A program made the translations under genes and the position numbers. A stretch of 64,000 nt of DNA. It comes from a virus. This document shows, one piece after another, positions 3,403 through 63,512 of the stretch. Every line of letters starts with the position of its first letter. Positions within the stretch are counted from its first letter, which is position 1. Under the pieces are notes generated by a model. It was not told the DNA's origin, did no database searches, and saw only the letters and a list, made by a program, of their open reading frames with translations. Location of the stretch: positions 1-64,000 of the IMG/VR virus record IMGVR_UViG_3300010970_000150, one strand, 5' to 3'.

Positions 3403-3417
3403 CAACTCATAAACTTT

Positions 3418-13400: not shown

Positions 13401-16400
13401 CTTGGTTCTATCAGCAATACCCTACAGGCTCCTATTCTTACTAAGAGCAGAGAAAAGGAAAGCGGTGCTAGAGAGCGTGGCTTTAAAACCAGACACAGCA
13501 CTTTCATTCCTGTTGAAGTTAATATGTACTTCCAGAGAACTAAGGTTGGCGAGCCTAACGAGGCTGGAGTTCAGAAGTACAAGATGGGTGATGCTCAGTT
13601 GCTTGTTAAGGCAATCGATATGGATGCCTTTATGACAAGAGTTGACTACTCTTGGAACAAGTTGGACGAGAAGGGCGTTGACTATAAAATGGTCAGACGA
13701 CTGTTTGGCACAAAGGAAAACCTTGTCGAAGCCGCTAAGGCTTTGCTTAGCAACTACAGCAACGGAGAAAAGGCTGAGGCTGGTGCTAAGATGTTCCAGT
13801 CTAACACGACATCGATTCGTGAAGCCGCTCATATGCGTGACATTGTAAACGCTGTCATTGGCTTCCACCCTACAAAGGAAATGCTTCAGAGTGGTATGAA
13901 GATGATTAGCCGCTCTGAGGGCAACTACCCTCTTAAGATGCAGAGAAGAAACACCGATAAAAAGGTGTCTATGCCTACTGTTATGACTGACTTTAACATC
14001 AGTCGTATTGGTACTCTTCGTGCTCTTGATGGCGAAGGATTCAGATATGACCACGACAATGCCTATGTCCGTTCTCAGTTTAACTTCTCCCCTGCCAAGG
14101 GTGGTCGTGACCACGAAGGCAGTTTCATTCCTGCCAGTGCTGAGCGTATCCTTAAGAACACTGTCTACAGAAACAAAGACGGAGAAGTGCTTGCTGTTTA
14201 TGACCTGAAAAAGGCCACTGCCGAAAGATATAAGATTACAACTGAGCCTTCTGTTTACGACTATGTCGATGATGGTCTTGGTCGTATGTTTGACATTGCG
14301 ATTCCTACGCTCAGAGGCTCTCAGTATTCTACGCAAAGCGGGTGGGTTCATTATACCCCTGACGGCTTTGAGGCTGGCCTTGTTGCAGATAAGCGTCTTG
14401 TCACTGGGTACATTGATACGCAGAGACACCTAGACATTAGCCAGATTCCTCACAACGCAGACTACAAGACTGCGATTGACACTGTAGTTCAGCGTGTTTC
14501 TCAGATTACTTCTAAGAATGCAGAACAGGTTCTTAACGACATCCTGAAACTTAGAGATGAAGACGGCACTACATTTAGAGAACTGTATTCAAGTCAGCCT
14601 GAAAGCATCCTACAGCACGAAGGAAGAAGTATGGATAACTGGCTTCTTACCAGAGACAATATCGACTTCTTTAACAATCTTGGCATTCACTCTGTCGAGT
14701 ACCTTGCACTTAACGAACTGAACGGAAACGAGTACTCCGCTGTTGCCGTCTATGACAACAAGAGATTTATTGAAAATGTCAGCAAGCGTTCACAGACAGA
14801 GCAGTTTAACTTCTCTCCTGCAAAGACAGTTCACGAAAGATTTGAGAAGGTAATTGCTAAGGCTGGTCACGAAAGAGCGTTGCTTGATTATGTCCTCAAT
14901 GAGAATGGAGAGGCTGTTCCTAACACGAGAAAGATTGGTCAGCACGACATCAAAAGAATCATTGATGAAGAGCGAGCCAGCATTCAGAAGACTATTGATG
15001 ACCTAAAGAAACTTAAACTTACTCAGGAAGAAATCCACGAGCGTGGAGTTAAGGTTCTTGTACCTATGGTTAAGGCAAAACTCAGGGCTGAGTTCAAGTT
15101 TGCCCCTGACGCTGTCCTACAGCAGATTGCAGAAGTTTCCCTTAGAGGATACAACATCACAAGTGGAGGCAATATTGTGATGAACGACAGCGTATTTATT
15201 AAGAATGCCAGAAGGTATGGAATCACCTCCAGAAAGTTGCTTGAGACTGGCATTCCTATGCTTGCTCACGCCGCTGAGATGACAGAAGCAGAGTTTGCGG
15301 CACTCAAGATGTTCCCCAAATACAAGGAAATCCTGAGACAAGGACGAGAAGCAGAACTTGCATTCCTAAAGACAGAGGAAGGTAAGAATATGTTTGAGCA
15401 TATTAACCAGCATATTATGGTTAAGCACGGAGGTTGGTCTGGCTTCTTTGATGCTATTGATAAGCGTCACCAAGGATTGATGCTCTTCGTTGATAAGGAG
15501 ATTATGGTAAAGAAGTCGGTAGACGGCTCTCAGATTTCAGCAATCAATCAGAAGAAACTGAAGGAACTGTTCGTAAAGAAGACCAGAGAGTTTGTTCTTG
15601 AGTCTCTCAGAAAAGACAACCTGTCGCTCGCTCAGCGTAAGGCACTCAATGAACTTCATAACCTTGGCAGAATGGAGTACGCAAACCCTGAAGGTCTTAT
15701 CAAGGAGACATTCTTTGACAGGGAGTCTGAACTTGCCTACACAAGACTTAACGAACTTCAGGCTAAGATTGACAGTATTTGGACTCAGGAGGCCAGTGCT
15801 AGAGTAGACGATATTCTTTCTGCTTACAACATTGAGGGCAGAAACGCCACAGCCATTGAGTGGGTTCGTGCCAATCTTTATGACGAGTCTGCCAAAGGTC
15901 TGCTTGAACTTGGCACTCCTGAAGCAATCAAAAGAGCCGTTGAACTGTATGCGTTCTTCAGCAAGGAAGCACACGGAGAGGTCTTTGATGTACAACAGGC
16001 GATAACAAAGAACTATGTTGATGCTCTTGCTAATCTTGAAAGCAAGGGTTACTACGGCTCTAACTGGGCGTTACAGGCACACGCTGGTAAACACTTTGAT
16101 GTTACTGATAAGTATGTTCTTGGAACTCATATGTGGAGATTTGAAGGTTCTGACTACACAGTAATTGAGCGTCTTCCTCATAACGGAGAACTGTCTACCG
16201 CTGAATCAATGAAGTGGAAGTACATTGAAATGTATGACCGCAACGGAAAGGTTATTTTTTCTGATAGATTCCTAAAGGAGTCTAGCGATAAAGAAATTGA
16301 TAATGCTAGAAAAAACTTTTTAAGACTTGCCACAAAGAAAGTAGACAATGCGGCTAGAAAACTTGGTCTGTTCTCAGACCATTACGAAGTAGTTGGCCCC

Positions 16401-19400
16401 AAGAAAGACTTCATCCTTAGAAGCCTTATGGATGAAAAGGGTCAGGCTATCCCTGAAAACTTTGACAACTGGGAACTGAGAGCAAAGGGAGACACCTATG
16501 TAGCCATTCAGCGTACAGACCAAGGCACTGATATCCAGTCTGTGCTTAACAAGAACGGCTCTTACGCAGGATTTAAGATTCTTCCTGAGATGACTCTTGA
16601 TGCAAATGGAAACAGAGTTGATTCTGGAAGAACACGCCTTGGCCCTTCTGGTCAGAAGACGACTGTAAAGGCTGAGATTGAAACGCTTAAAAAGATTCTT
16701 GCTGAAGGTGCTCCTATTACCATCAGGAAGGAAAAGAAGGTAAGAGAAATCAAGAAGGTAAAGGGAGGCTACGGCAATGGTAAGCCTGTCTATGAAACTG
16801 TTACCAAGATTGTATTTGAAGACACAGGCAAGAGAAGACCGCTTGAACTTTCTGAAAAGGTTCATCTAAGCGAACAACTTACTAGACTTCAGGGAATCCA
16901 ATATGGTGATACTGGAACCATTTTCCAGATTGATGGTAAGTATAACATTGTATTCCCTCCTGATGCTGAGGGTATCAATACGATTGAGAAAAGAACTAAG
17001 GCTCTTAGACAACTTAAGACATCTCAGTCTCCTAACATTGCCTTTGATGCATACCTTGACCGAGTCTACAATGACTTTGGCAAGAGACTTAGGGAGAGAA
17101 AGAGAACCGAACAGCGTCTGATTGACACAATCCTCTCTGACGGAGAGAACGGAAACCTTGCGAAGATGAAGGCTCTTGAGGCTGAGATTCGTGATGGTGA
17201 GTCCAAGTGGAAGCAGTACATCAAGAAGCGTACACAGGAACTCAATGTTGAACAGAAGCGTAATAAACTTCCCCCTCTTAATGTACTTGATGTAATCAAG
17301 ATTATCGAGAAGCAGTTGGATGCGGCACAGAAGGGTTCCGTATACCACGGAGACAAGGTTCTAGTTCTTGAACACCAACTTAGACAGTATGGTGCTCTTG
17401 AAAGAATGGAATTGATGTCCGAAACTGAGAGAGATGCGTGGATGACCCAGTATGCATTCCTCAAGGAAGACGGCAAGGCAGACCAGCACCTACTTGCTCC
17501 AGACCCTGCTGAGTCTAAGATGGCTTTTGTCCAGAGAATCAGACAGCAGATTCTTCAGTCTAAGCAGAAGCAGGTTGAGTTTAGAAGGTCTTACGATGAG
17601 ATTAACGGACTTGTTGAAGGCAACAGTGCCATCAAGGAGAAGGCTCTCTATCAGATTGAGTTTCTTGCTCAGCAGTATGCCGCCGCCAAGGGCCACAAAC
17701 TTAGCGACAAGTTCCTCCGTGAGGTAACACTTGAAGAGGCTATGGAGAATAGTGGTTCTTCTAGATACGGAGTTAAGGAAACAAAAATCAGCGTTGATTC
17801 ACTGAAGAAACTTGGACTGCACCCCAAGACACAGCCTAGATATATGCCTGATGAGTTTGGCATTCTTGGCAAGGGTTCTAAGTCGTTTACTACTCACGAA
17901 GAATACAAGAAAGCCTTTGAAGAAGGACTCACTTATGTCAGAGACAGATGGCATACCGCCTCAAACAAGGACGCTTTGGAACTTCAGGGCATCCTTGATA
18001 TGGGCTTCCAGCATTTGACCAGTGGTGAAAGCACTGCTGAAAAGAATGTCAGCAAGGAACTGGAAAAGATTAAAAAACTTAGCAAGATTCAAGACCCAAA
18101 GTTGAAGGCTTGGATGCTAGACCCGCTTAACCAGAACTTCATCGATGATGTAATCAAGAAGTACAAGGACAATTTCTACGATAAAGATGAAGCAATCAGG
18201 GCTATCGAAGAGAAGTATGATTTTGAGCGTCTTGGTAAGTATGGAAGAATCCTGAAGGGTGCTGAGGCAAGACTGCGTGAAACCAACCAGTCTCTTGCTA
18301 ATCATTTCATCGAACTGGACAGCCTTACTAACATCAGTCAAGCGTTTGGAAACCAGTTCAGACTTCCTGATGGCTCGCTTGACCTGAGAGCGGTTGAAAA
18401 CATTGAAACAATTGAGAAGTCCAAGAGAGCAAAGGAAATTGTTTCCATTGTACGCAAACTTGAGGCTAAGCGTCTTGCACTTGAAAAGAGAATCAAGAGT
18501 GCCATTGATTCTGTAGAAGACCCTAACGCTCCTGCTGGTGCTCATACGGAAGAGTTCAAACAGATGGTGGCTGAGCGTAAGATTGCCCAGCAGGTCAGGG
18601 ATAGGGTTGCTGAAAACGAAAAGCAGAATGCCACTCAGATGGAGCAGTGGAGAACTGAAGCCAGAGCAGAAGCAGAACAGTTGTTCCAGCGTTACAACAA
18701 GAGGGCTACTGAACTTGGTATGCGTGACTCTGAAGTAAGAATCGACCCTGCCAGCCCAGATGGACAGCGGTTCTTCTTTATGTTCCCCTCACTGTCTTGG
18801 GACTTCTTTGGCCCTATTCATTCCTTTGACTGGTCTGTTACTACTGATACCTATGGCCCTCACGCTGGTGAGTCTGCTGTTGGTGAGACATTCAGAAGCC
18901 TTAGAGGTAGCACTGAAAACGAGGTAGCCTCAAATGAGCGTAGGCGTAACGCTGGTCGCACAGTTTATCTGGCTGACTATATGTTCCGTGCCGAACAGAT
19001 TAAACTGTACCACGAAAAGAACCCTGATGCCAAGATGACAGCCGAGCATTCTATGCTACTGTCCTTGTTCCATCCTGAGGTTGCTAAAGACCCTGTCTTC
19101 ATCGACAAGCAAAGCAAGATTGCCCCTGACAAATTGGCAAGACAGATGGAACTGTCTCAGGGTATCAGAGACAAGTTCAAGAGCGGAACTGAGCGTGAAA
19201 GATTTGTCCGCACCTATGCGTATGAAGCCCTTCAGTTGCTTATGGGTTCTCAGTCCCTGAGAATCGAAGCGTTCAAGAGACTCAGAGGTCTTAATGATGT
19301 TGAGTTTGAGTCGTTCAAGAACTCAAGAAGCCCTGAGCAGGTTGAAGCCGCACTCAGAGACAAGGAAGTGATTGAGAACGCTATGTACTTGATTCGTGAC

Positions 19401-20978
19401 GCTAATGGTTACGCATTCCTAAAGCCTCAGGCCGATTCTAATCCTTATAACTGGAAGACTGGCGAAGTTGCTAACGGAAAAGACAAGCCACTGCTTAAGG
19501 ACAAGAAGCGTCAGGCGTTCCTTACTGGACACGGAGGACACTTCGGTATCCCCATTGACAGCCTTGTCAGAATGGAAGGCTTTAAAAAGGTCTGGGAAGA
19601 AGAACTTGGTTCCTACTCTACGACCTCTATGTTTGATGAAGGTAACCAGTCCTACATCAAGCGTAAGTACGAAGAAATGCCCCTGTGGCAGAGAATGAAC
19701 CTGCAAACAAGCACAGCCAACAGGCTTATGCTTGAGAACAAGCAGGGTATGGCACAGTACCAGCAGGAAGCACACGACAGAAGAGCCAACAAGCCTCTCT
19801 GGTTCCCAGAACAACTTGATAGGGTTGAGCACGGAGGTGATTTTTCCAAAAACGCTGACTACGAGTATCAGAGAGTCGAAAAACTTCTGACTACAACTCT
19901 TGCGGTTGAGTCTTCTATTCAGAAATTCAAGAAAGATGGAGTGAAGGCGTTTATTACCGAAAGACAGTTTGCCCTTCATCACTTGCTATCGCTAAACGAT
20001 GGTCTTGCCTTCTCCAATCTGGACTGGAGCAACACTGATGCAGGCTCGTTCCGAGAATCCAATGACGGAAGATACATCATTAAGAAGGTTGGCGATGACC
20101 ACTTCGAAGTGTTCTTTGCTGGCGAGAAGATTAAGAACGCCAGCGGTGTTCAGGTTCTTGAGATTCCTACAGTCCAAATGGGCATTGTTGAGAATGTAAC
20201 TCAGGCTCAGGTGCTTGTCAGATTCTACGAAGACGACATTAAGGGTATCAGGATTGCCTCTAACGCTATCACTGGTGGAGACAACAACACCCCTTGGAAG
20301 GTGGGCAATCAGCCTATGCCAGCCGACAAGACTGGTGCTGTAATCAAGTCCATTAAGTACGCTCCTCAGTTCTCTGAGACAGTCATTAAACTGTATGAAC
20401 AGAACAAGGGTTCGCCTCACTACTCTCAGGTGATGCGTGATATGCTGGCTGAACTTAAGTTTGATGGTGAGAACTACGCAGAGAACCAGTATGTTCAGTA
20501 TGTAACTGCAAACGGAACCATTGATACTCCTTTTGTGCTTATTACTCCTACAAGGGAAGGAGAACTAGCACGAACGCACACAAGGGGTACAAACTCTAGC
20601 GGTCACACAGTGTGGGAACTCAAGCCCAAGGTTGAGGCTCCTGATGTTCCTGCTACTGGCTCTACGCCTGATGCGGCTGAGAATGTTCACGCCCCTGTAC
20701 ATACATCTGACAACAAACCCACGGCCCCCGAAACACAGGCCGTGTCTGATGCCTCCAGTTGGAGAATCGAGTCCAGAATCCCCTCCAAGGCTGGAGAAGT
20801 GTACTCTGAATGGGCTACCATCAGAAACAAACTGAACTACCTTATGGTGCGTCTGAGAGACGAGAAAGGTATCTCTGTGTTCAGGCTGTTTAACCCTGCT
20901 TCTGGCTATGTAGGCCAATTTCGCAGAGAACAGGAAGCGGTTGACGCTGTCCTCAGAGAGGAGAGAACTAAGCGATGA
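10443..20978 (+). CDS. Giant ejection / polyvalent protein, copy A' (3511 aa)
   Basis: Gly/Ala-rich hydrophobic N-terminal segment; zincin-like EELLH..EEF; degenerate ART-like domain between two QFNFSPAK motifs; about 1200-aa core alignable to 55752..63512. Confidence 0.8.
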   Translation: MPKEIVYSSEEAYNNAVRSGNVKTPNEEDVADINQPLDGPATAAIKEEMTPDEKGEYVAQMISRYGIHGYVPTFEEAMAHRAWKSKQEVSAWESISGAMEHTAGTLANGAWELTKDVATLKVPKVLGSVVEGAALGTKNWLYMYEQAKYDEDSWLHKMLYDTHSSDQDYYWNLKQSIETNKMIANDERDGIIVPHQINIGGMDIDLTNPAVVQAISYVADPSWLLPELGIEATIAKGMRGAAGILQLNEQLTKASVFSTKKASTLAGKVGEKAGALAGLVERTEEKLIESFKNLTGMDAGIRGSGQAIYKDNLVRGAAEGVGANNLRIPAWGVTTLTWGAAKMTEVAAKTAELGFELASQESKIVGLRMSERIAAESANPVVANLARTWSVTASPMLEWGTATARTSLHSAMYGGAFGLVMGGEDGFYNGLGTGFVLGGAFHQIGVAHGAVSGGNAVQDVVKNFLWATQHFEYHNQEGLARLLQIVEKEGGTKAKLSTMAQVGAAERLQRNERRLYLTEERIKKMALSPEWAKYVELLNDPNFGGVTFHHTVNGENVTIINVDRAAKSALSEELLHTVLLNDRYAEPFKKAAVEALIGTEDNAGALYRMPKDDAVRLLEAFRDSYLKLEGSLSDTNPAAMEAIHQDFNRSIEQLKRGERPTTLRTAFEEFLTSYWNRFIEEKPIDYLLNGGDLGLIRNSIEWGKDVYRDIMHKDLTAAGANFKWGTNPDNFFIEQNTKQRIRIPMLDKLMRHYVKELGGERYKGWKKNPVVHSDTGVAFANELEHLFNKEGGTKAEILSDEVLAGNQTKSLFAIVDELSKAPSDKRGLKFSFYQGNSDKPEYQFSSAKPKKPNQKDKRPTHHDKEKTVAMPTSKSDDAHWAVTRKKLKEVFGEDVNSTLEDADVKNLRKKKGEIQEVDVEENVGWDKMERDDDGFWKSNWQGNPRIKITGKATDYELKVLAKYLPENTVKRFAQLNTVIERSRQGMLGSISNTLQAPILTKSREKESGARERGFKTRHSTFIPVEVNMYFQRTKVGEPNEAGVQKYKMGDAQLLVKAIDMDAFMTRVDYSWNKLDEKGVDYKMVRRLFGTKENLVEAAKALLSNYSNGEKAEAGAKMFQSNTTSIREAAHMRDIVNAVIGFHPTKEMLQSGMKMISRSEGNYPLKMQRRNTDKKVSMPTVMTDFNISRIGTLRALDGEGFRYDHDNAYVRSQFNFSPAKGGRDHEGSFIPASAERILKNTVYRNKDGEVLAVYDLKKATAERYKITTEPSVYDYVDDGLGRMFDIAIPTLRGSQYSTQSGWVHYTPDGFEAGLVADKRLVTGYIDTQRHLDISQIPHNADYKTAIDTVVQRVSQITSKNAEQVLNDILKLRDEDGTTFRELYSSQPESILQHEGRSMDNWLLTRDNIDFFNNLGIHSVEYLALNELNGNEYSAVAVYDNKRFIENVSKRSQTEQFNFSPAKTVHERFEKVIAKAGHERALLDYVLNENGEAVPNTRKIGQHDIKRIIDEERASIQKTIDDLKKLKLTQEEIHERGVKVLVPMVKAKLRAEFKFAPDAVLQQIAEVSLRGYNITSGGNIVMNDSVFIKNARRYGITSRKLLETGIPMLAHAAEMTEAEFAALKMFPKYKEILRQGREAELAFLKTEEGKNMFEHINQHIMVKHGGWSGFFDAIDKRHQGLMLFVDKEIMVKKSVDGSQISAINQKKLKELFVKKTREFVLESLRKDNLSLAQRKALNELHNLGRMEYANPEGLIKETFFDRESELAYTRLNELQAKIDSIWTQEASARVDDILSAYNIEGRNATAIEWVRANLYDESAKGLLELGTPEAIKRAVELYAFFSKEAHGEVFDVQQAITKNYVDALANLESKGYYGSNWALQAHAGKHFDVTDKYVLGTHMWRFEGSDYTVIERLPHNGELSTAESMKWKYIEMYDRNGKVIFSDRFLKESSDKEIDNARKNFLRLATKKVDNAARKLGLFSDHYEVVGPKKDFILRSLMDEKGQAIPENFDNWELRAKGDTYVAIQRTDQGTDIQSVLNKNGSYAGFKILPEMTLDANGNRVDSGRTRLGPSGQKTTVKAEIETLKKILAEGAPITIRKEKKVREIKKVKGGYGNGKPVYETVTKIVFEDTGKRRPLELSEKVHLSEQLTRLQGIQYGDTGTIFQIDGKYNIVFPPDAEGINTIEKRTKALRQLKTSQSPNIAFDAYLDRVYNDFGKRLRERKRTEQRLIDTILSDGENGNLAKMKALEAEIRDGESKWKQYIKKRTQELNVEQKRNKLPPLNVLDVIKIIEKQLDAAQKGSVYHGDKVLVLEHQLRQYGALERMELMSETERDAWMTQYAFLKEDGKADQHLLAPDPAESKMAFVQRIRQQILQSKQKQVEFRRSYDEINGLVEGNSAIKEKALYQIEFLAQQYAAAKGHKLSDKFLREVTLEEAMENSGSSRYGVKETKISVDSLKKLGLHPKTQPRYMPDEFGILGKGSKSFTTHEEYKKAFEEGLTYVRDRWHTASNKDALELQGILDMGFQHLTSGESTAEKNVSKELEKIKKLSKIQDPKLKAWMLDPLNQNFIDDVIKKYKDNFYDKDEAIRAIEEKYDFERLGKYGRILKGAEARLRETNQSLANHFIELDSLTNISQAFGNQFRLPDGSLDLRAVENIETIEKSKRAKEIVSIVRKLEAKRLALEKRIKSAIDSVEDPNAPAGAHTEEFKQMVAERKIAQQVRDRVAENEKQNATQMEQWRTEARAEAEQLFQRYNKRATELGMRDSEVRIDPASPDGQRFFFMFPSLSWDFFGPIHSFDWSVTTDTYGPHAGESAVGETFRSLRGSTENEVASNERRRNAGRTVYLADYMFRAEQIKLYHEKNPDAKMTAEHSMLLSLFHPEVAKDPVFIDKQSKIAPDKLARQMELSQGIRDKFKSGTERERFVRTYAYEALQLLMGSQSLRIEAFKRLRGLNDVEFESFKNSRSPEQVEAALRDKEVIENAMYLIRDANGYAFLKPQADSNPYNWKTGEVANGKDKPLLKDKKRQAFLTGHGGHFGIPIDSLVRMEGFKKVWEEELGSYSTTSMFDEGNQSYIKRKYEEMPLWQRMNLQTSTANRLMLENKQGMAQYQQEAHDRRANKPLWFPEQLDRVEHGGDFSKNADYEYQRVEKLLTTTLAVESSIQKFKKDGVKAFITERQFALHHLLSLNDGLAFSNLDWSNTDAGSFRESNDGRYIIKKVGDDHFEVFFAGEKIKNASGVQVLEIPTVQMGIVENVTQAQVLVRFYEDDIKGIRIASNAITGGDNNTPWKVGNQPMPADKTGAVIKSIKYAPQFSETVIKLYEQNKGSPHYSQVMRDMLAELKFDGENYAENQYVQYVTANGTIDTPFVLITPTREGELARTHTRGTNSSGHTVWELKPKVEAPDVPATGSTPDAAENVHAPVHTSDNKPTAPETQAVSDASSWRIESRIPSKAGEVYSEWATIRNKLNYLMVRLRDEKGISVFRLFNPASGYVGQFRREQEAVDAVLREERTKR

Positions 20979-47825: not shown

Positions 47826-47840
47826 CAACTCATAAACTTT

Positions 47841-48023: not shown

Positions 48024-48127
48024 TTACCCTTATCCTTTCTACAATCACCTTTCTTGGTGGCGTTTATGTTGGTGCTCGCTGGGCTGACAAACTCAAGGAT
48101 ATCTACTATTCCATCGTATCTAGATAA
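48020..48127 (+). CDS. Small membrane protein (35 aa)
   Basis: Identical to 3597..3704. Confidence 0.6.
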   Translation: MITLILSTITFLGGVYVGARWADKLKDIYYSIVSR

Positions 48128-55751: not shown

Positions 55752-58700
55752 ATGCCTGAAGAACTCTACAATACTCCTTCTAACAACAGCGGCGTGGCAA
55801 GTGGCTGGCTGGCTGTTAATGGAGTTGGACAACAAGACCAAGCCCTTCAGGGAATGAATGAAGATACAAAGGCTTACATTGAGACGCTTCCTCCCTCAGA
55901 AAGACAAAAGGCTATTGATGAGTTCAATGCCCCCCTTTCAGGTATGGAGGTTTACGAAGCCCTGAAGCAAAGCCCTGATTTCAAGCCCACGCACGAGGAG
56001 TACACCAAGTACCTCGCTTACGACAAGGAACATAAAACTTCCGTCCTTGAAGGTCTTGGTATGCTCGGTGAGGGTATGAGTGCCGTTATGGGTGACTTAG
56101 GTAAGGCGGCTGGTGCTGTCATTGACCATCCTATGTCTGGGCTGGCAAAAGCCCCTGCATCCCTCATTGAGGCGTTTGCACAGGGTACTCGCAACCTCTA
56201 TGGTATGGTGGCTCAGTCTGCTAGCCCTGATAGCGTGTTGTTCAAGATGAAGAACGCTCTTGCTGGCGATGGTACTGTTGACGGCTACAATCAATTCCTA
56301 GAGGCTCGTAAGTTCAATAAACATTCTGCGGCTCTTGCTGAAGGCAAGGAGACCCTAGTTATGGACAAGGATGTCATTGACCACGACCTCACTTTGGCGA
56401 TGTCTTATATCGCTGACCCTACACTATTTATTCCGTTTGGCAATGCGGCTTCTGCGGCTATGAAGGCTGTTGGTATGGGCGAGAAGATTGCCCTTATGGG
56501 TGGCAGAGCCGCTTCTATTAAGGCGGCTGTCATTGGTGGCGGCTTGAAGTGGGGCGTTGGTGCTCCCATTGAAGCACTTGCTAGTGTCACCAGAGGTACA
56601 ATTGAAAGAGGTGCGGCTCTTGGTGGTGCTGTCTTAGAAACCACTACAGGCATCTCTGCGGCTGAACTCAAGGCTACGGCTAAACTTTCTGCCGCTGGTA
56701 CGACCACGGCTTCTGCTCTTGGTGGTCATATTCCTATTATCTCTGATATCAGCAACACCTATGTTGCGGCTGGTGCGGCTAGAGGCTTTGGTGAAGCCAT
56801 TGGTGCTGTTGGTGAACAGATTCAGAAACAAGGCTTTAATCGTGGATACAACTCTTTTGCTCGTGAGGCTTTTGAGCAGACAAAAGGTCTTTCTCCCCAC
56901 GCCAAGGGACTCCTGAAAGTACTTGATGCCGTTGACCCTATGTTCTCATATGGCTATGGTACGGCTGTTGGTGCTGGACACGGAGCACTCATTGGTGGCA
57001 CTCTTGGATACCTGAACGCTGGAGAAGAAGGTATGTACCACGGAATGGGTGCTGGTATTGCCCTTGGTGCTACTGGTGCTGTGGGTGGCAGGATGTTTGC
57101 TGATGTTGCTGGTGGCACTAAGATGGCTAGAGCAGAAATTCAAGGAGGCTTTGTCATTGAAAATATGAGGGCTGACAAGCACATCAACTTAGAGGCTACT
57201 GAACTCTACCTTGAACTGGCTACTCGCAATGGAGACAGGGCTGGTGCTTTGCAAGTCATTGGAGGTCTAGACAGAGTTGCTCCTGATATGAGACTCATCC
57301 TTGGAAATGTAGAAAGCCAAAAGAAACTTCTTCAATCCAAAGGACTTAACGAACACGGACATAAGGTTGACCCTAAGACTGGAAAGGTTGAAATGCGTAA
57401 TGGAAAGCCTATTGAATACGAAGCCCCCCTTGCTGGCTTCTATGGTGGTGAAGGTTTTGTTATGCACACCGACAGAGATGGCAACGGCAAACAACAGGTC
57501 ACAGTTGTGATTAACACAGACGCTCTTGCTAGTGGCAAAAAGAATGTGATGCACCACGAACTTTTCCACGCTGTCTTCAAGACAACGATTATGGAGAAGA
57601 TGTTCAGAGACAACTTTGCTGAGGCTATCCTTGGAAAGTTTGATGCTAATGGCATTAAAGTCAAGGACTCTGAAATTAACCCCAAGGAGTTCAAGGCATT
57701 TGTTACACGAGAACTTGCTAACACAGTAGACCCTGCTACGAATAAGAAACTTGCTCCTGCTGAACTGACTAGAAGACTTAAAGAGTTCGATTATCACCTT
57801 GCTGAATATCAGAAGGCTGGAACTACGGCTAAGATGAATCCTGACTCTGCCAAGGCTCTTAACTATCTTGTTGAAGAATTTGGTGCTCACTACGCTACAC
57901 AATTTATGAAGGGTAAGCCTGTTGACTATCTGTTCAGAGGAGCAGAGTACACAGGTATGCAAGGCGTTATGGACAGACTCCACAACGGATTCCTAGACTT
58001 CTGGCAGGGTCAGACTGGTAGGCAGAACCCAACCTTTGGAGACTTTACAGCCAAGGGCTTTGATGAATCGTTTGCACCCAATAAAGGCAAGCGTACACTC
58101 GACCAAAGAAGCCCTGCTCTTGACTATATGGTGCAAGACCTCCTGCGTTCGGTTGCTGGTAAACGCAAGGGAAGCACGAATTCTTTTGATGTTAGAACGA
58201 TGTCTCCTGAGGCTCGTAACGCTTACTTCAACAGTTCTGGTATGGATGGAGTCAGGGCTTACTACGACAAGGACGGCAAACTCCGTAATGTCACAGAGGC
58301 TCAGGTAACGGCTGAACGACTTGAAGTCGGTAAGGCTATCCACGAATCCCTGTCTAAACTTGACCCTAAGGAAACCGCAGGTCTTGCTGACTCTGACGGA
58401 AATTTTGGTTCTTCCTCTACGCTTGGCACTAAGTTTAACGACACAGTACTGGCTCACCTTGTTAAAGAAGGTCACATCAGCCAGCAACTCGCTGAGCGTA
58501 TTAAGACTGTTCAGGACATTGTCAGCGGTCAGGGTTCTAATCGTGTCTCTTATCTCTACAAAGGAGCGTCACACGAAACAGAAGTTGGTCCAAATTCCCC
58601 TCGTCTTTACGGCAAGGATGTTCCTATCACAGCCAGAGAAACAATTGTTGTTGGTTACAAGATTACAATTAAAAAGGACGGCACTATGTCTCTCGTGATG

Positions 58701-61700
58701 AAGGGGCTAGATGCTAAGGTGATGGACGAAAGAGGAAACATTCAATGGGCTAAGCCTGAAGTCAGAGCACTCTGGCAGGGCGATAGAAACGCCTTTGACC
58801 AGTCGTTTATGGAGTACCTCAGCAACGCTAGTAAGGCTAGCACGGACAGGACTCGTGTTGAGTCTTCCCTGCTTCCTTCTCTTGCTATGGGTGACGGACT
58901 TGGTGCTGAGCGTAGAAATGTGATGCACCAGTTCCTTGGTATGGCTAAGCGTAAGGACGCAGGGTACTTCAACACTCCCATTGCTGAGATTCCTAGAGGC
59001 AAGACATCTGTCGTTACTAACTTCACAATGGACACTATGAGTCCTATGCGAAGCGACTCTCCTATTCGTTACGACTTCAACCTCGACAACGCCCACAGCG
59101 ACCTCAGCAGAAACTTCAAGGTGTCCGATATGGACTACGAGAAGACACCTCAGGGTGATGTGTTTACTCACGCATCTAAGTACAAGATTGTTGCGGTCAA
59201 AGACCAGCAGGCTCACCTGTACGATGCTAACGGAAAATCCCTTGGTGCGTTTAAGGACAAAGACCTCGCTGGAGTTGCTATGGAAAAGGCTTATGCGGCT
59301 GAGCGTGCTGAAACAGAAGTTCGCATTGAACGCATTAAGGAAGACCAACAGAAGCAACAGCAGAACTTCAAGGTGTGGGATGAAGGAACTATGGAAGAAG
59401 GTAGAAGGCTTGGAGACATCTTTGAGACAGAGCAAGGCAAGGCATTCGTTCACGGCACTACTCTTATCCGTCAGACTCGTGAAGAGTTCTACAGCGACAA
59501 TTTCTCTAAACTCCGTCAGGCTGACCCTGACACAGTTATGGCAGTCACGGAGCAAATTGCTCAGCGTGGCTATGCCCTCAGAGACCTCAGAACTAAGGCT
59601 TACGACAGACTTCAGGCTGAACTAGCCAAGGGCAAAGGTAAGGAATACAAGTTGGCTCGTGACCAGTACGATGTAATCGTCTCTCACGCTGACCGCTACA
59701 ATGACATCTTGCTTGCCTACGAAAGAGCCACCAGAGCCAAGACCAATGGTCAAGGCATCCTAGACTACATCAACACCCACAGACGCACCTCCACAGGCTA
59801 TGACAATATGGCTAAGGTGTTCTTTGGAGACCACTACGACTCCCAGTTCCAGACAGGTAAACCTGTCACTACAGTCGCTACACACGGCACAAGCAGTCAC
59901 GAACTGCTGACCTCCAGAGAGTTCGACCCTAAACAGTCTGGCTCTAAGCACGGAGCAGAGCACGACAAGGTTGGCATCTTCCTTTCTGGAGAGACCAAGA
60001 CCTCACACGGCTACGCTGACCCTAAGGAAAAAGACTTTGGCTATCGTCAAGTCAGAGCCGCTATCAAGTTCAATAATCCTCTGGTCGTTGACGCTCAGTT
60101 TAAATGCTATAGCCCTGATGTCTACGAAGGCTATATGAAGAAGGTCAGAGATGGTGGTCACGATGGCGTTATCATCAAGAATGTTTACGATGGTGGTAGT
60201 GCTGATACTGTCTTCATCGTCAATAACGACTCTGTTAAGGCGAACACGGCTATCATCGACACGCACATCGGTATGGAGCGAGTCAAGAGACAGTCTGAAA
60301 GCATCAGCGATATCTCCGCAGACAGCGACCAAGGCTCTGTCAGATACCCGATTCAGGAGTCTATGCCTCGTGGCAAGGATGTCCGTGTTGGTTCTCAACT
60401 AGGTTTATCTTGGAAGGTAGATGATGCAAATGCTCCTAAGGAATCCGCACAGGACTACAGCCGTCTCAAACTCATTAGAGAAACCCTTCCGATGCTTATC
60501 CCTGAGATTTGGGAAAAACTTAAGAAGACAGGTAGAATCATCAAGAACTACGACCCAAGAGAAATCCTTGGCGAAGTTTTCGTCATCAATCCTGACGCTA
60601 TGATTGCAGGCAATGTAAAGATGGGTGACACTACCCTTATCGGAGAAGCCCTAGGTGGACCGAACTTTACTATGGGCGAAGGTGCGAGGGCTGGCAATGA
60701 AGTTTGGGCTAACACCAAGACTGCGGCTGGTACATACGAGAAACAAATTGCTGACATCGTTGACCGAAAGATTAACGACTTAAACAAAGAAGCAAGAAGA
60801 CAGAAGTGGTCTAAAGAAAGAATTGATGCGGAGATTGCCAACATCACTACGCATATGGTTATCACAAAAGGAACGAACCAGAAGCCCCTGAGCAACCCTA
60901 CGGCATTCAAGGGTGCGTCTGATATCATCAAGACATTCGTTAAAGAAAGTATGCTTAGCGAGGCTGATGTAAAAGCGATGTTCCAGAAAGAATCTGAGAG
61001 CACAGTTCCTAAAGGAAAGGACAAGAAAACTGGCAAGTTCCCTGTGGACGAGAAAGGCGTTAGACTCCGTGAGAGATACCACGCTGATGTAATCGACTTC
61101 AAGGACATTATGGAACTCCCTCTGGGCGAGTTCTTGGCTGAGGTTGGAAGACGAGCAGAGAAATCGTTTGAGACTAGAGGTGACCTGATGAAGGACACCC
61201 TAAAGCAACTGGCTCAACTTCCTTCTATGAAGAAAGACGCTAAGAGTCTTGCAAAGATGAGAGCGATGTTTGATGACCCAAACTTCAAACTTAATAGAGC
61301 CGAGAACCTAGGAGAAGCAATCGCCACTAAGTTTTCCGAGCCTTACACGGATGGACTTAAGACATCTGAAGCCTACGCTTCTGTTTCCTTCAAGGGCAAG
61401 GCTAAGGTCGTGAAGGGTTCTCACCCTGACTATCCTTACTCAATTGTCCCAGCAGGAATGGGAGAGCCTACTTTCCACCTATGGTCTGACGCTATTGCCA
61501 TTCAGAAACTTGTAGATAAAACAGTTGTTCCTTTTGAAGCCCCGTCTGGTTCTCCTGCTAAATATCTCGATATGTCTAAACTAACGCCTGCTGAGGCTGG
61601 CAATCAACTTGGGTCTAACTCTGTGGGCTATACTAAGGCTAAGATGAAACCGCTTAAAGACATCCCTGCAAGACCTGAGGGCGAAGGACGCATCGGTATG

Positions 61701-63512
61701 AACTATAAGGTTGATGACATCGCTGGTGCTCCTCGTGAGGGCGGTGCTAAGACTTATACTGAAGGCAACGCTGAGTGGAAGGGTCAGTTCGTTGGACGCA
61801 TTGCTGAGCAAAATCCAGACAAGGTAAAAGGGTTGCAAATTAAATACATCGAAAACAAGACAATGTTTAAGGACAAGAACCTTGTTACTGTCGTTCTTCA
61901 TAACGAAGACGGACAACAGGTTGGTATTCTTAACGCTGATGTCTACAAAGATGGCACGGCTAAGATTGTTGACACTCAAGTGGCTGAGCAATTTGGCAAC
62001 AGAGGCTATAGCAAACTAATGCTTTCTGAACTTGGCGAGCGTATCAGAAGCCAAGGAGTCAAAGAAGTATACGGAGAGGTTGTTGATAAACTGGACAGAC
62101 CTACCAAAGCCAGAAAGTCTGCTTGGGGTAACGCTGAACTAGACCCTGAATCTATTTCCAATATGTCTGAAAGCGGTCAAGTTACTGTATCTAAACTTAA
62201 TCCTGACGCACACTACAAGGTGTCTGACGCAGAGATTGCACAAGTACAAGAAAAGGTTGATATGTTAAAGTCTATAGTAGATAGATATGAAAGATTTAAA
62301 GATGCTAAGGGCAGAGAAAACTCTGACAATAAGCGTAGATACTGGGATGCTAAGCGAGAGTACAACAAACTTAATGACTATACGCTGAAGCCTATGCTTG
62401 CTGAGATGCAAAAGCAAACTCCTGATACTACGCCTAACCTAAAGCCTTTTGAAGGCAACTTCAAGGTGAGCGATGCGGTTAAGACAGGCGTTGTTAAACT
62501 CGATGAAATCATTGGACGGCTTACTAAGACAGACAACATCTCGCCCTCTCTCAGAGATGCAATGAAGGCGTTGAAGGACGCTGTGCGTAAGCAGGATGCT
62601 ACAGACGAGGTGCTTATCCCTGAACTTAGAGAAGCCTACGATGCAATGGTAAGAAGCATTGATGACCAGATGGCTGGTGCATCGCTAACTCCTATTGATT
62701 CCCTCAAGGAAATCAACAAGGCTCTCAAGCCTCTTGATAAGAAGATTCAAAAGAACTCTGAGCGTATCCAGAAGAACGCTAGAGATGCACAGGAGGCTGA
62801 TATGGCTGAAGGTGCTGATGTCGAAAGTCAGGGCATCCAAGAAAGACAAGCGGCTAATCGCAGAGATATGGAAGAAGGTGCTAGCCTTGAGTCCGACCAA
62901 TCAACCGCTGAGATAGACCGCAGGCGTGGTGATGCCAGACTTGATATGGAAGAGGGTGCTAACCTTGATTCTGACCAAGTCCATCAACAGATTGGCGAGT
63001 ATAATGCAGACCAGAACGAAGCGGCTAATGTTGAAGCGGCTCAGCCTCGTAACCAGAACCTGCCTCCCCAGTTCCCTAACCCTGCCCCGACTGTTCCTGC
63101 TGGTCTCCCTAGTTACAAGCCGTCAGGTACGCCTGCCTTCCCTAGACCCCCTGCCACGCCTGCCCTGCCTCAGGTCAAGCCTAGCGGGGCTGTTCCGTTC
63201 CCCAGACCTCCCGCTACCCCTGCACTCCCAAGAGGCTCTATAGCCCCTCCTCCCCCCCAAGGAACGCCTGCTCCGAACCCTCTAGCACCCAGCCTTACAG
63301 CCGCTAAGCCTCTTCCCAAGTTGTCGGCTTGGAGAGGTTGGACGCTTGAAAAGGGTCTTAACGGAGGCTTCTGGAAGAACGCTGTCGGCTGGATGATTGT
63401 AGTCCAAGCGGATAAGTTCAAGGTGTACAACCCTCAAAAGGCTATGCTGGGAATCTATCAAGACCTAGAACAAGCCAAGCGGAGAGTCCAAAGGGCTGAG
63501 CCTAAGCAATGA
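55752..63512 (+). CDS. Giant ejection / polyvalent protein, copy B' (2586 aa): zincin HExxH, ART-like and GNAT domains
   Basis: HELFH..EEF; HGT..GIFLS..FNNPLVVD..GHDGVIIKNVYD; FGNRGYSKLMLSEL (GNAT motif A); six [NHS][FYW]KV[SWD]D motifs; Pro-rich tail. Confidence 0.85.
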   Translation: MPEELYNTPSNNSGVASGWLAVNGVGQQDQALQGMNEDTKAYIETLPPSERQKAIDEFNAPLSGMEVYEALKQSPDFKPTHEEYTKYLAYDKEHKTSVLEGLGMLGEGMSAVMGDLGKAAGAVIDHPMSGLAKAPASLIEAFAQGTRNLYGMVAQSASPDSVLFKMKNALAGDGTVDGYNQFLEARKFNKHSAALAEGKETLVMDKDVIDHDLTLAMSYIADPTLFIPFGNAASAAMKAVGMGEKIALMGGRAASIKAAVIGGGLKWGVGAPIEALASVTRGTIERGAALGGAVLETTTGISAAELKATAKLSAAGTTTASALGGHIPIISDISNTYVAAGAARGFGEAIGAVGEQIQKQGFNRGYNSFAREAFEQTKGLSPHAKGLLKVLDAVDPMFSYGYGTAVGAGHGALIGGTLGYLNAGEEGMYHGMGAGIALGATGAVGGRMFADVAGGTKMARAEIQGGFVIENMRADKHINLEATELYLELATRNGDRAGALQVIGGLDRVAPDMRLILGNVESQKKLLQSKGLNEHGHKVDPKTGKVEMRNGKPIEYEAPLAGFYGGEGFVMHTDRDGNGKQQVTVVINTDALASGKKNVMHHELFHAVFKTTIMEKMFRDNFAEAILGKFDANGIKVKDSEINPKEFKAFVTRELANTVDPATNKKLAPAELTRRLKEFDYHLAEYQKAGTTAKMNPDSAKALNYLVEEFGAHYATQFMKGKPVDYLFRGAEYTGMQGVMDRLHNGFLDFWQGQTGRQNPTFGDFTAKGFDESFAPNKGKRTLDQRSPALDYMVQDLLRSVAGKRKGSTNSFDVRTMSPEARNAYFNSSGMDGVRAYYDKDGKLRNVTEAQVTAERLEVGKAIHESLSKLDPKETAGLADSDGNFGSSSTLGTKFNDTVLAHLVKEGHISQQLAERIKTVQDIVSGQGSNRVSYLYKGASHETEVGPNSPRLYGKDVPITARETIVVGYKITIKKDGTMSLVMKGLDAKVMDERGNIQWAKPEVRALWQGDRNAFDQSFMEYLSNASKASTDRTRVESSLLPSLAMGDGLGAERRNVMHQFLGMAKRKDAGYFNTPIAEIPRGKTSVVTNFTMDTMSPMRSDSPIRYDFNLDNAHSDLSRNFKVSDMDYEKTPQGDVFTHASKYKIVAVKDQQAHLYDANGKSLGAFKDKDLAGVAMEKAYAAERAETEVRIERIKEDQQKQQQNFKVWDEGTMEEGRRLGDIFETEQGKAFVHGTTLIRQTREEFYSDNFSKLRQADPDTVMAVTEQIAQRGYALRDLRTKAYDRLQAELAKGKGKEYKLARDQYDVIVSHADRYNDILLAYERATRAKTNGQGILDYINTHRRTSTGYDNMAKVFFGDHYDSQFQTGKPVTTVATHGTSSHELLTSREFDPKQSGSKHGAEHDKVGIFLSGETKTSHGYADPKEKDFGYRQVRAAIKFNNPLVVDAQFKCYSPDVYEGYMKKVRDGGHDGVIIKNVYDGGSADTVFIVNNDSVKANTAIIDTHIGMERVKRQSESISDISADSDQGSVRYPIQESMPRGKDVRVGSQLGLSWKVDDANAPKESAQDYSRLKLIRETLPMLIPEIWEKLKKTGRIIKNYDPREILGEVFVINPDAMIAGNVKMGDTTLIGEALGGPNFTMGEGARAGNEVWANTKTAAGTYEKQIADIVDRKINDLNKEARRQKWSKERIDAEIANITTHMVITKGTNQKPLSNPTAFKGASDIIKTFVKESMLSEADVKAMFQKESESTVPKGKDKKTGKFPVDEKGVRLRERYHADVIDFKDIMELPLGEFLAEVGRRAEKSFETRGDLMKDTLKQLAQLPSMKKDAKSLAKMRAMFDDPNFKLNRAENLGEAIATKFSEPYTDGLKTSEAYASVSFKGKAKVVKGSHPDYPYSIVPAGMGEPTFHLWSDAIAIQKLVDKTVVPFEAPSGSPAKYLDMSKLTPAEAGNQLGSNSVGYTKAKMKPLKDIPARPEGEGRIGMNYKVDDIAGAPREGGAKTYTEGNAEWKGQFVGRIAEQNPDKVKGLQIKYIENKTMFKDKNLVTVVLHNEDGQQVGILNADVYKDGTAKIVDTQVAEQFGNRGYSKLMLSELGERIRSQGVKEVYGEVVDKLDRPTKARKSAWGNAELDPESISNMSESGQVTVSKLNPDAHYKVSDAEIAQVQEKVDMLKSIVDRYERFKDAKGRENSDNKRRYWDAKREYNKLNDYTLKPMLAEMQKQTPDTTPNLKPFEGNFKVSDAVKTGVVKLDEIIGRLTKTDNISPSLRDAMKALKDAVRKQDATDEVLIPELREAYDAMVRSIDDQMAGASLTPIDSLKEINKALKPLDKKIQKNSERIQKNARDAQEADMAEGADVESQGIQERQAANRRDMEEGASLESDQSTAEIDRRRGDARLDMEEGANLDSDQVHQQIGEYNADQNEAANVEAAQPRNQNLPPQFPNPAPTVPAGLPSYKPSGTPAFPRPPATPALPQVKPSGAVPFPRPPATPALPRGSIAPPPPQGTPAPNPLAPSLTAAKPLPKLSAWRGWTLEKGLNGGFWKNAVGWMIVVQADKFKVYNPQKAMLGIYQDLEQAKRRVQRAEPKQ

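Follow-up and report, generated by a model that had tools for sequence, protein, structure and literature searches.

How should a short peptide that recurs six times within one giant phage protein be read? We examined this question in a window of 64,000 nucleotides (positions 1 to 64,000 of the 88,287-bp IMG/VR record IMGVR_UViG_3300010970_000150), in which one giant gene carries the repeats. The features that set the scene are the following.

55752..63512, (+): giant ORF of 2586 aa; by synteny, it ends the tail/internal-protein block and is the largest gene in it
55752..59111, (+): conserved core (aa 1-1120), made up of a hydrophobic N-terminal part rich in Gly and Ala plus the HExxH region, common to the whole family
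10443..20978, (+): counterpart giant protein of 3511 aa in the second genome of the record, with the same core and C-terminal domain

A giant gene at the locus of ejection proteins

Upstream of the giant gene lie a gene for a tail/virion structural protein of 767 aa (phrog_3287, phrog_8094) and then ORFs of 412, 141, 358 and 853 aa. This order supports the view that the giant gene occupies the usual locus of podovirus internal or ejection proteins, and its product is best explained as a candidate internal (ejection-type) virion protein of a podovirus-like phage of ∼44 kb, built on the plan of polyvalent proteins. The source is an uncultured tailed phage, and the protein strings exchangeable enzyme modules together with one short peptide per joint. 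The 88-kb record itself looks like two genomes of ∼44 kb each that were wrongly joined. The core of the 2586-aa protein shares 23% identity over about 760 aa with that of the 3511-aa protein, which has EELLH where HExxH is expected and two copies of FNFSPAK where the 2586-aa protein has NFKVSD; the cargo of the 3511-aa protein gave no match in PDB sequences or Pfam. Searching 50,697 phage records by megablast and tblastn with the 2586-aa protein returned no relative of the giant protein, and PHROGs gave no match to it. The core retrieved 171 cluster representatives by phmmer at E<=1e-3.

Six copies of a hexapeptide selected as peptide

The original prediction, made from the letters alone, had listed six hexapeptides in this ORF. 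A pattern scan returned all six, identical in peptide and position, as x[FWY]KVxD at aa 1121, 1205, 1553, 1984, 2154 and 2236.

59112..59129, (+): copy 1 of the junction motif, NFKVSD, where core and small domain meet; its coil (pLDDT about 61) leads directly into the first strand of that domain
59364..59381, (+): copy 2, NFKVWD, from the pattern match and the AlphaFold models
60408..60425, (+): copy 3, SWKVDD, within coil of pLDDT<50 (residues 347-384 of model 1)
61701..61718, (+): copy 4, NYKVDD, in coil of pLDDT<50 (residues 780-804 of model 1)
62211..62228, (+): copy 5, HYKVSD, closing a segment of pLDDT<50 (907-964 of model 1)
62457..62474, (+): copy 6, NFKVSD, closing a segment of pLDDT<50 (1027-1043 of model 1)

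Against these six copies of [FWY]KVxD, 5000 shuffles of the protein gave a chance expectation of 0.06 and a maximum of 2, and among 369 ORFs scanned across the 88,287-bp record (minimum length 60 aa) no other ORF holds the pattern. The motif is selected at the peptide level, as had been proposed from the serine codons, which are indeed TCC, TCT and AGC in different copies. In 41 copies from the window and seven related loci, valine is encoded by GTG (15), GTT (11), GTC (7) and GTA (6), and aspartate by GAT (27) and GAC (10); on this scatter a repeat or recombination site acting at the DNA level was rejected. An internal translation start was also considered at copy 1, where AAGGTG, six nucleotides and ATG lie behind NFKVSD. 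It was rejected because no start codon lies behind the other five copies, and because the K/Q/M-Pro codons found throughout the family yield no Shine-Dalgarno-like sequence.

Structure prediction places the copies outside folded domains. In the AlphaFold model of the cargo region (model 1), whose confidence is low overall (mean pLDDT 58.8), four of the five copies covered are in coil with pLDDT below 50. The remaining one is found at a domain edge, as is copy 1 in model 2 (pLDDT about 61-63). No copy in either model falls within a segment of pLDDT>=70, so that the expectation of motifs in linkers rather than within folded domains held for six of six. That the motif could be a strand of each folded domain is unsupported: both models show the copies as coil or at the edges of domains. 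Every joint carries a short linear motif, in what is predicted to be a flexible linker. The placement at domain borders is supported by these models and by insertions in homologues beside copies 4 and 5: the largest insertions in the MAFFT alignment (600 and 198 columns) flank copy 5, and one of 46 columns lies two residues ahead of copy 4.

The modules between the joints

59130..59363, (+): small domain of sheet and helix (aa 1127-1204), homologous to the C-terminal one
59382..60407, (+): ART-like module (aa 1211-1552), from Foldseek and a match to PF18760 (ART-PolyVal) at E 0.011 that misses the cut-off
60426..61700, (+): module of about 425 aa with no assigned function and no Pfam family
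61719..62210, (+): GNAT-like module (aa 1990-2153), from Pfam at 19.5-20.7 bits and Foldseek matches to GNAT chains
62229..62456, (+): helical module of about 76 aa, from module clustering and AlphaFold
62475..63326, (+): tail region with helices, acidic repeats of the DMAEGAD type and a Pro-rich stretch
63327..63509, (+): C-terminal small domain (aa 2526-2586), which aligns to the C-terminus of the 3511-aa protein

The two small domains are related: jackhmmer with the C-terminal 62 aa recovers the first one at aa 1126-1180, and model 2 shows it as five strands with a long helix. The C-terminal small domain was found by jackhmmer in 141 of 174 family sequences, and is one of the most widely kept parts of the family besides the N-terminal core.

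The labels 'ART-like' and 'GNAT', as originally given, are plausible from the Foldseek and Pfam leads; the individual scores are under the curated cut-offs, and the leading Foldseek matches, to PARP/tankyrase and GNAT chains, have E 0.04-0.1. For the ART-like module, ART-PolyVal scored 17 bits against a cut-off of 31.2, and the Foldseek list (E 0.04-0.2) is led by tankyrase/PARP (probability ∼0.95, E 0.04) together with diphtheria-toxin catalytic domains. For the GNAT-like module, PF00583 (Acetyltransf_1) scored 19.5 bits against 20.7, PF14542 scored 20.7 against 30, and GNAT chains were matched by Foldseek with probability 1.0 and E 0.07-0.2. Precomputed annotations place PF18760 on the homologues P0015, P0017 and P0025, and PF00583 on P0007, P0011 and P0012; our own Pfam search of six homologues and two distant relatives found nothing.

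The modules are exchanged among relatives. Homologues have zero to three copies of the GNAT-like module, the helical module is replaced in some by a spacer of 18-27 aa, and the place of the ∼425-aa module is taken by unrelated modules (families F, H and M differ). Among shorter proteins, only one fragment was found when stand-alone GNAT or helical modules were sought.

Concerted change of the motif within each protein

At least five copies are present in 24 of the 29 close homologues, nearly all C-terminal of the core. Two copies are exceptions in location, namely FKATD at aa 478 in P0002 and FKAKE at aa 2237 in P0021, the latter within a module. Segment clustering showed that the modules between the copies vary among phages while the motif stays at each joint, so that the predicted conservation at junctions was found in spite of differing cargo. 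The motif marks sites of cassette gain, loss or exchange. Module borders were taken here from segment clustering and alignment insertions; BLAST end points were dropped for this purpose, as gapped extension blurs them.

KVxD is the local form of a more general motif, aromatic-x-Pro/Val-x-Asp/Glu. The family-wide form is [N/R/K/H]-[F/Y/W/M]-x-[P/V]-x-[D/E], and N-aromatic-K-V-x-D is that of the clade of the 2586-aa protein; the Asn of copy 1 is invariant in 58 aligned sequences. In 73 proteins, aromatic-x-[PV]-x-[DE] occurs 352 times C-terminal of the core against 129.6 expected, and 90 times within the core against 76.4 expected. The motif is retained across proteins with 26-40% identity.

The second residue of this general motif changes in concert at all joints of a protein. 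Pairs of copies share it at a rate of 0.41 within one protein, a value reached in none of 2000 permutations, and of 0.15 between proteins; its class (K, Q, M or S) changed at least 14 times on the core tree. Sister proteins differ by Q versus M at four homologous joints (P0046/P0045) and at five (P0048/P0047), by K versus Q at three, and by S versus M at three. Moreover, in 11 of 16 cases the module end 'RF[ND]..DIR' is followed by the variant of the host protein; the variant thus appears to track the host protein and not the module. Since the second residue switches jointly at homologous joints while codons vary freely, a specific reader at the protein level is implied. We infer that all copies are recognised by one such reader that co-evolves with the motif, and the motif very probably acts as a junction signal that a specific partner reads.

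The search for this reader by mutual information, in which the motif class was set against 1083 core columns and against both small domains, returned only the motif itself. The best covarying column had a z of about 6; copy 1 of the motif itself reached 14.5. Of the 30 core columns that ranked highest, five are at aa 596-647, near HExxH, and are too weak for use.

A candidate zincin and a proposed cleavage

57555..57569, (+): HELFH (aa 602-606), candidate zincin active-site helix, with invariant residues and helical in model 2
57873..57881, (+): EEF (aa 708-710), with E709 as candidate third zinc ligand, invariant and helical in model 2

The HELFH at 57555 and its downstream EEF are present as first described. 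The 58 aligned sequences, rows that were chosen by core coverage and leave out the EExxH clade, show no variation at H602, E603, H606 or E709. HELFH lies in helix 59-72 of model 2, following two strands, and E709 in helix 158-180, with pLDDT 84-88. HExxH is retained in 79 of 87 family members.

Matches of this region to zincin folds are weak. Foldseek gave no match at E<=0.001, and VIA-align of model residues 1-267 gave Z 4.8 with the N-domain of anthrax EF, 4.2 with LF and 4.0 with Certhrax, all under the level of a reliable match. On the 2586-aa protein, Pfam returned no peptidase family and neither an MPTase nor an LPD family at E<=1; a profile search (A3) against PDB sequences gave five matches at E<=1, all to unrelated proteins.

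As the most likely mechanism we propose that the precursor would be packaged intact through its conserved ends, that the motif would be a proteolytic processing site, and that cutting at the joints, within the capsid or after ejection, would free separate host-directed enzymes. Reading the junction motif as a cleavage signal has close to an even chance of being right. As the enzyme we would favour, with less confidence, the protein's own zincin domain, an assignment in cis that must be called doubtful; it would cut immediately N-terminal to the aromatic residue, which would occupy a hydrophobic S1' pocket.

The part of the original prediction that saw a peptide-level signal between cargo modules was upheld, but several observations count against the 'own protease'. 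Junction motifs are kept where HExxH is not: the EExxH clade, which includes the 3511-aa protein, has one to three [FY]SPxK joints, and among the distant relatives P0171, P0155 and P0162, which have no HExxH anywhere, [FY]QSxD occurs five times in P0171 and three times in P0155 (a search for P0171 in viral contigs found nothing). Neither does any column of the zincin region convincingly track the motif variant, and the weak fold matches point the same way. A table of HExxH loss against motif loss (83/35/14/1) was discarded as evidence, because the HExxH-less proteins are two or three clades in which only the terminal small domain was detected, and the comparison is not like for like.

Alternative readings of the joints

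It is conceivable, though rather unlikely, that the joint motif is a handling signal without proteolysis: a docking site for one partner by which the chain would be ordered in the capsid, or ratcheted unfolded into the cell module by module, and remain uncut. The partner could be the small domain of the family itself, a host chaperone or unfoldase, or the portal or ejection channel. The motif always lies directly ahead of the small domain, both in many giants that have two copies of it and in minimal members of ∼1000 aa, which lack cargo and have a single motif, ahead of their terminal small domain; the first role of the motif therefore need not be effector release. Docking would also agree with the motif being kept in relatives that lack HExxH, with the concerted change, which any co-evolving binder would fit, and with the N4 virion RNA polymerase, reportedly packaged unprocessed (PMC5512222). 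However, no column of either small domain covaries with the motif class, the motif is unpacked against the small domain in model 2 (coil, pLDDT about 61), and the conserved zincin signature of the same chain would need another job. An objection to docking from the tethering of the ART and GNAT enzymes would be weak, as they could still work within the 2,586-aa chain.

If the joints are cut, the enzyme could be another protease, encoded by the phage or by the host, with the HExxH domain being structural or aimed at host targets. That HExxH-less relatives retain recurrent motifs is in favour of this improbable option, as is the similarity of the [PV]-x-[DE] part to head-protease sites with a terminal Glu; were the reader a host factor, the variant switches between sister phages could track host shifts. 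On the other hand, Pfam and PHROGs gave no protease family, prohead protease included, in 19 other plus-strand ORFs scanned in the window, no other protein of the record holds the motif, and podoviruses of this capsid type are generally not known to encode a head protease. There is only a slight chance that the motif is a recombination scar, a short common splice sequence that permits in-frame exchange of cassettes, with copies inherited from the resident protein and no reader. Cassette gain and loss do coincide with the motif, and a module bearing the host protein's variant is expected for a junction inherited from the recipient. Yet Val is encoded by each of its four codons and Ser by both of its codon families, so that this synonymous scatter leaves no DNA identity for recombination. 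The motif also persists across the 26-40% identical proteins, and the joint Q versus M change at four or five homologous joints, which takes two base changes, cannot be explained by descent alone.

Comparison with known systems

T4 internal proteins and Alt are packed in the head, ejected, and processed by the head protease at a short motif, and the head-protease sites of T4 and of phiKZ-type phages end in Glu. The 2586-aa protein resembles such substrates in being a candidate for an ejected, head-packed protein with a short motif of acidic end. It differs in that head proteases are separate prohead enzymes that remove N-terminal propeptides, whereas its motif separates whole modules. Cutting of head proteins at a protease motif is described for SPN3US (gp245 substrates; PMC10052503).

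In plan the 2586-aa protein resembles polyvalent proteins, for which the main text of Iyer, Burroughs, Anand, de Souza and Aravind 2017 (PMC5512222) proposes autoprocessing by their MPTase and delivery with the invading DNA, and cites the N4 virion RNA polymerase as packaged without processing. As in the proteins described there, unrelated enzyme domains (ART, GNAT and others) and an HExxH...E domain are combined in one giant phage polypeptide: the ART-like, GNAT-like and HExxH regions and unassigned modules give at least two unrelated effector-type domains, with single assignments below cut-off. Unlike them, the 2586-aa protein has no Pfam MPTase or LPD family match, and its family has a defined motif at every joint that co-varies within each protein; that main text gives no processing site or inter-domain motif, and the word 'linker' does not occur in it. 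The nearest ESM-Atlas clusters are of LPD, MuF_C and PBECR families (scores 0.81-0.89), which we take as leads only. No published junction motif of this kind came up in our literature searches; supplements, above all those of Iyer et al. 2017, may hold site data.

By gene position, as the largest gene closing the tail/internal-protein block, the giant gene resembles that of T7-type internal virion protein D (gp16-like; N4 gp50, H66 gp60) as presented in the text of Hardies et al. 2016 (PMC4819975). That text describes IVP-D homologues carrying domains bound for the cytoplasm, and phiRIO-1 virion proteins in which no processing was seen. The examples in it have one embedded enzyme each, unlike the cassette train and repeated joint motif of the 2586-aa protein.

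MARTX toxins offer an analogy without homology. The account of Egerer and Satchell 2010 (PMC2900308) has them cut at Leu, within unstructured stretches that separate the effectors. The phage protein would follow their plan of conserved delivery ends, a central effector train that varies between strains, an internal protease and processing sites between effectors. The MARTX enzyme of that account is a cysteine protease, activated by InsP6, whose cuts fall after Leu, and the targets are eukaryotic cells. The phage protein has a zincin as its candidate enzyme and aromatic-x-P/V-x-D/E as its signal, would travel in a phage particle, and its cleavage is putative; Pfam gave no cysteine protease domain of the MARTX kind in the 2586-aa protein.

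Implications for the phage family

A quite speculative extension, to which we give little credence, is that the joints are a private 'cut here' code re-keyed in each phage lineage: the same residue (K, Q, M or S) would be switched in all copies with an unseen change of the reader, which would keep processing specific to a phage's own effectors. In this same speculative reading, a cut immediately N-terminal to the invariant aromatic would leave each freed enzyme with Phe, Tyr or Trp as its first residue. These are bacterial N-degron residues recognised by ClpS when at the N-terminus. The injected enzymes would then form a timed set with a built-in timer, active in the first minutes of infection only.

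The prevailing view of giant multi-enzyme phage proteins is that they are weapons which the phage injects and which are then cleaved into individual effectors, and we did not find the cut sites named in the literature examined here. This family gives exact candidate sites, together with a natural experiment in sister proteins that differ only in the key residue at each joint. The cassette system comprises dozens of unassigned modules, probably directed at host takeover or anti-defence. Should cleavage prove true, the co-evolution of reader and motif would become testable, the joints could be used for loading chosen proteins into phage particles for delivery to laboratory bacteria, and the mature effectors would be predictable from sequence in hundreds of uncultured phages.

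A junction hexapeptide in the giant protein

The original prediction described a hexapeptide that recurs six times in the giant protein, at apparent domain borders. A scan for x[FWY]KVxD found the six copies exactly as claimed, and we consider their role as a junction signal well supported. The main features are as follows.

55752-63512 (+), ORF of the giant protein, 2,586 residues
57555 (+), HELFH (aa 602-606), with EEF at aa 708-710, both as predicted, in the core (aa 1-1120)
59112 (+), copy 1
59364 (+), copy 2
60408 (+), copy 3
61701 (+), copy 4
62211 (+), copy 5
62457 (+), copy 6
62900-63330 (+), acidic and Pro-rich part of the tail (aa ~2385-2525)

In 5,000 shuffles of the giant protein such sites averaged 0.06, with a maximum of 2, and of the 369 ORFs with 60 or more residues across the 88,287-bp record, this is the only one whose product has the motif. 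Ser codons differ between copies, as had been noted. A partial seventh copy, KFKVYN, lies within the C-terminal domain. At copy 1 the Lys-Val codons read AAGGTG and are followed 6 nt further by ATG (Met1127), an arrangement (59121-59132) that resembles a ribosome-binding site and start codon and that is absent from copies 2-6; at this joint many family members have Met right behind the motif, as xPSEM. The acidic units of the tail are repeats of the type DMAEGAD-x-ES, and a Pro-rich stretch with near-repeats (PAFPRPPATPALP) comes after them, directly before the terminal small domain.

Searching with residues 1100-2300 gave 28 homologues, 2,056-3,045 aa in length. With the query counted, strict [FWY]K[VAP]x[DE] occurs at least five times in 24 of 29 proteins, two or three times in three and never in two. 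The copies are C-terminal to residue ~1100 (~510 in P0015, a homologue truncated at its N-terminus), apart from one match inside the core of P0002 and one within a module of P0021. At the joints the motif is kept in most homologues, while the modules between vary. Cutting the proteins at the motif and clustering the pieces gave a cassette map, which is approximate because the regular expression over-splits some modules. The shared plan starts with the core (~1,115 aa), an 84-aa domain and an ART-like module of ~348 aa, followed by a slot for one of several unrelated modules of ~400 aa. After that slot come GNAT modules, 0-3 in number, together with further cassettes 184 to ~575 aa long; the tail is preceded either by a helical module of 80 aa or by a spacer of 18-27 aa. 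The joints were also checked independently of the motif, from insertions relative to the query in a MAFFT alignment of 22 sequences. The largest (600 columns) lies 4 residues before the copy 5 aromatic and the next largest (198 columns) 2 residues after it; one of 46 columns sits 2 residues before copy 4.

Predicted structure

The AlphaFold2 model of the cargo (aa 1195-2330, same alignment) is weak overall (mean pLDDT 58.8), with clear folded blocks and low-confidence coil between them. Copies 3-6 (model residues 360, 791, 961 and 1043) fall within or end segments with pLDDT below 50 (347-384, 780-804, 907-964 and 1027-1043), and copy 2 borders the ART-like block on its N-terminal side; as about one third of the model is below 50, four of five copies would fall there by chance with a probability of roughly 0.04. 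The core model (aa 540-1210, 36 sequences) is better, with pLDDT 76.4 and pTM 0.64. It places copy 1 in coil (pLDDT about 61) immediately ahead of the small domain (aa 1127-1204), predicted as five strands plus a helix, and copy 2 at the fraying end of that helix. Every copy is modelled a few residues ahead of the next folded element. The models place the copies in coil or at domain edges, in support of the domain-border claim.

Neither model had a Foldseek match at E<=0.001; the list for the cargo model, all at E>0.001, begins with tankyrase/PARP catalytic domains and GNATs. The VIA-align Z scores were all below the tool's reliable level: 4.0-4.8 for the HExxH part of the core against anthrax EF/LF and Certhrax domains, about 6 for the small domain against sheet-plus-helix domains of small size, and 5-6.1 for model residues 363-580 against WYL/Sm-like barrels. 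The last part of the core (58455-59108, aa ~902-1119) has a WYL/Sm-like likeness to PafBC, BrxR, CapW and DriD, with 89-100 residues aligned and a score too low to trust. In these defence regulators, WYL/Sm-like domains sense a ligand or ssDNA.

Genome setting

Self-comparison shows that the IMG/VR record, which ends in a 55-bp terminal repeat, consists of two collinear, diverged genomes head to tail, offset by ~44.4 kb.

3031-5341 and 47454-49764, a 2,311-bp block identical base for base between the two genomes
37664-38044 (+), 126-aa homing-endonuclease-like ORF (NUMOD4 and HNH_3), directly upstream of a 425-aa ORF and the large terminase gene

The halves could be a true cointegrate of two genomes, a reading we do not favour. 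Since the halves are collinear but diverged, share an identical block, and the contigs that carry giant-protein homologues measure 40-44 kb, the "complete" record of 88,287 bp most likely arose when two related phages that occurred together, one of 44,423 bp and one of 43,864 bp, were mis-joined as a figure of eight in assembly. Both units carry genes for the large terminase, portal, SU10-type capsid protein (PF17236, E 6.5e-38), a 766/767-aa tail structural protein and four further ORFs, besides the giant gene. Cultured podoviruses have capsid proteins that share only 25-29% identity with this one. By its position, the giant gene corresponds to that for the largest internal (ejection) protein of podoviruses; among 50,697 phage records the giant protein has no relative.

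The motif in the wider family

A phmmer search of 1.84 billion representatives, with aa 1-1130 as the query, gave 171 proteins of up to 5,828 aa at E<=1e-3 and extended the observation to a large family. When the most recurrent aromatic-anchored five-residue pattern was sought in each large member, KPxE, QPxE, MPxE, QPxD, SPxD or QSxD was found 3-6 times in many of them. Because other members repeat these related patterns, KVxD is the variant that one clade, here called the KV clade, has of a general motif, [FWYM]-x-[PV]-x-[DE]. In the remaining family, 113 distinct sites in 26 proteins have N, R, K or H at position -1, Pro (100) or Val (13) at +2, Glu (80) or Asp (33) at +4, and Gly or Met next after the motif. 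In 73 full-core proteins, 352 occurrences of the general pattern lie beyond the core, where 129.6 are expected, and 90 lie within it, where 76.4 are expected.

The C-terminal domain (aa 2526-2586) and the small domain behind copy 1 are homologues. This domain is present in 141 of 174 sequences, in two copies in most giants, and many members have their final motif copy 61-70 residues from the C-terminus, immediately before the terminal small domain. The ~1,000-aa members are built of the N-terminal part, a single motif and the small domain, most of them with an HExxH as well. The giants therefore resemble this minimal plan expanded by another small domain and by inserted cargo cassettes, each of which would bring or keep a motif.

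The closest working analogue of this plan is that of the MARTX toxins (PMC2900308). As described in passages of that paper, the end regions deliver, the effector train differs by strain, and an internal protease processes at Leu sites within unstructured inter-effector segments. For phages, Iyer et al. 2017 (PMC5512222) defined polyvalent proteins and proposed that MPTase domains free the remaining domains; the passages concerned give no cleavage site, and the word "linker" is absent from the main text. Passages of Hardies et al. 2016 (PMC4819975) describe homologues of internal virion protein D with domains destined for the cytoplasm, and report no processing of phiRIO-1 virion proteins. The literature searches listed no article on a conserved joint motif in such phage proteins.

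Motif copies change together

Residue 2, the position after the aromatic anchor, is identical in 41% of copy pairs within a protein and in 15% between proteins; the within-protein value was reached in 0 of 2,000 permutations (38 proteins, KV clade collapsed to one row). Its class (K, Q, M or S) switches at least 14 times on the core FastTree (73 rows). Sister proteins, compared at joints with recognisably homologous flanks, differ in parallel: Q against M at four joints (P0046/P0045) and at five (P0048/P0047), K against Q at three (P0036/P0038), S against M at three (P0042/P0058) and K against M at two (P0037/P0058), with P0120/P0105 as exceptions to the rule that each protein uses its own residue. 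Likewise, a cargo-module end, RF[ND]..DIR, is followed by the motif variant of its host protein in 11 of 16 occurrences, five of those 11 being close relatives.

Descent alone fails to account for this parallel change at homologous joints. Gene conversion across 15 bases is an unlikely source, and synonymous codons are used freely over 41 motif copies (the window and seven related loci). We conclude that all copies of a protein share one specific reader, acting at the protein level.

What reads the motif

The original prediction held the motif to be a cleavage or translocation signal, and named a candidate protease within the protein itself. Its junction-signal part stands; the zincin acting in cis is a candidate, with arguments on both sides. 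Cleavage is the most likely mechanism at the motif, a judgement about as apt to be right as wrong. In favour of the zincin, none of 58 aligned sequences (identity down to 26%) departs from H602, E603, H606 or E709; the set was picked for core coverage and leaves out the EExxH clade. HExxH is kept in 79 of 87 members aligning over the region and in all 73 full-core rows; the core model places it on helix 59-72, preceded by two strands, with E709 on helix 158-180. The anchor is always large and hydrophobic, being only F, Y, W or M in the first copy wherever that copy aligns, and would suit the S1' pocket of a zincin.

Against the zincin, seven proteins of 3,467-3,717 aa have EExxH and nevertheless retain joints of the [FY]SPxK type, one to three per protein, on the flanks of a module of ~240 aa; the next ~2,000 residues are free of joints. 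The record's other giant protein has EELLH where the 2586-aa protein has HELFH in our alignment.

10443-20978 (+), ORF of the other giant protein, 3511 aa

It has two FNFSPAK copies (aa 1213 and 1455), one on either side of its ~240-aa module, and the ~2,000 residues beyond them show neither a joint motif nor a match to Pfam or to PDB sequences. Its size is reminiscent of virion RNA polymerases; size is the sole likeness, and nothing supports that identity. It also counts against the zincin that no column of the core or small domain tracks the motif class, and that three distant relatives of 3,428-4,135 aa (P0171, P0155 and P0162), which have only the N-terminal ~400 aa in common with the family, lack HExxH anywhere. 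[FY]QSxD, in these relatives as [FY]QS[AGP]D, is nonetheless repeated five times in P0171 and three times in P0155, neither of which matches a Pfam family.

Among 19 other ORFs scanned, a part of those in the record, no separate protease was found. The zincin acting in cis is the best single candidate for the reader; that it is the cutting enzyme we regard as possible though rather doubtful. The three HExxH-less proteins would make a useful test case for the identity of the joint reader.
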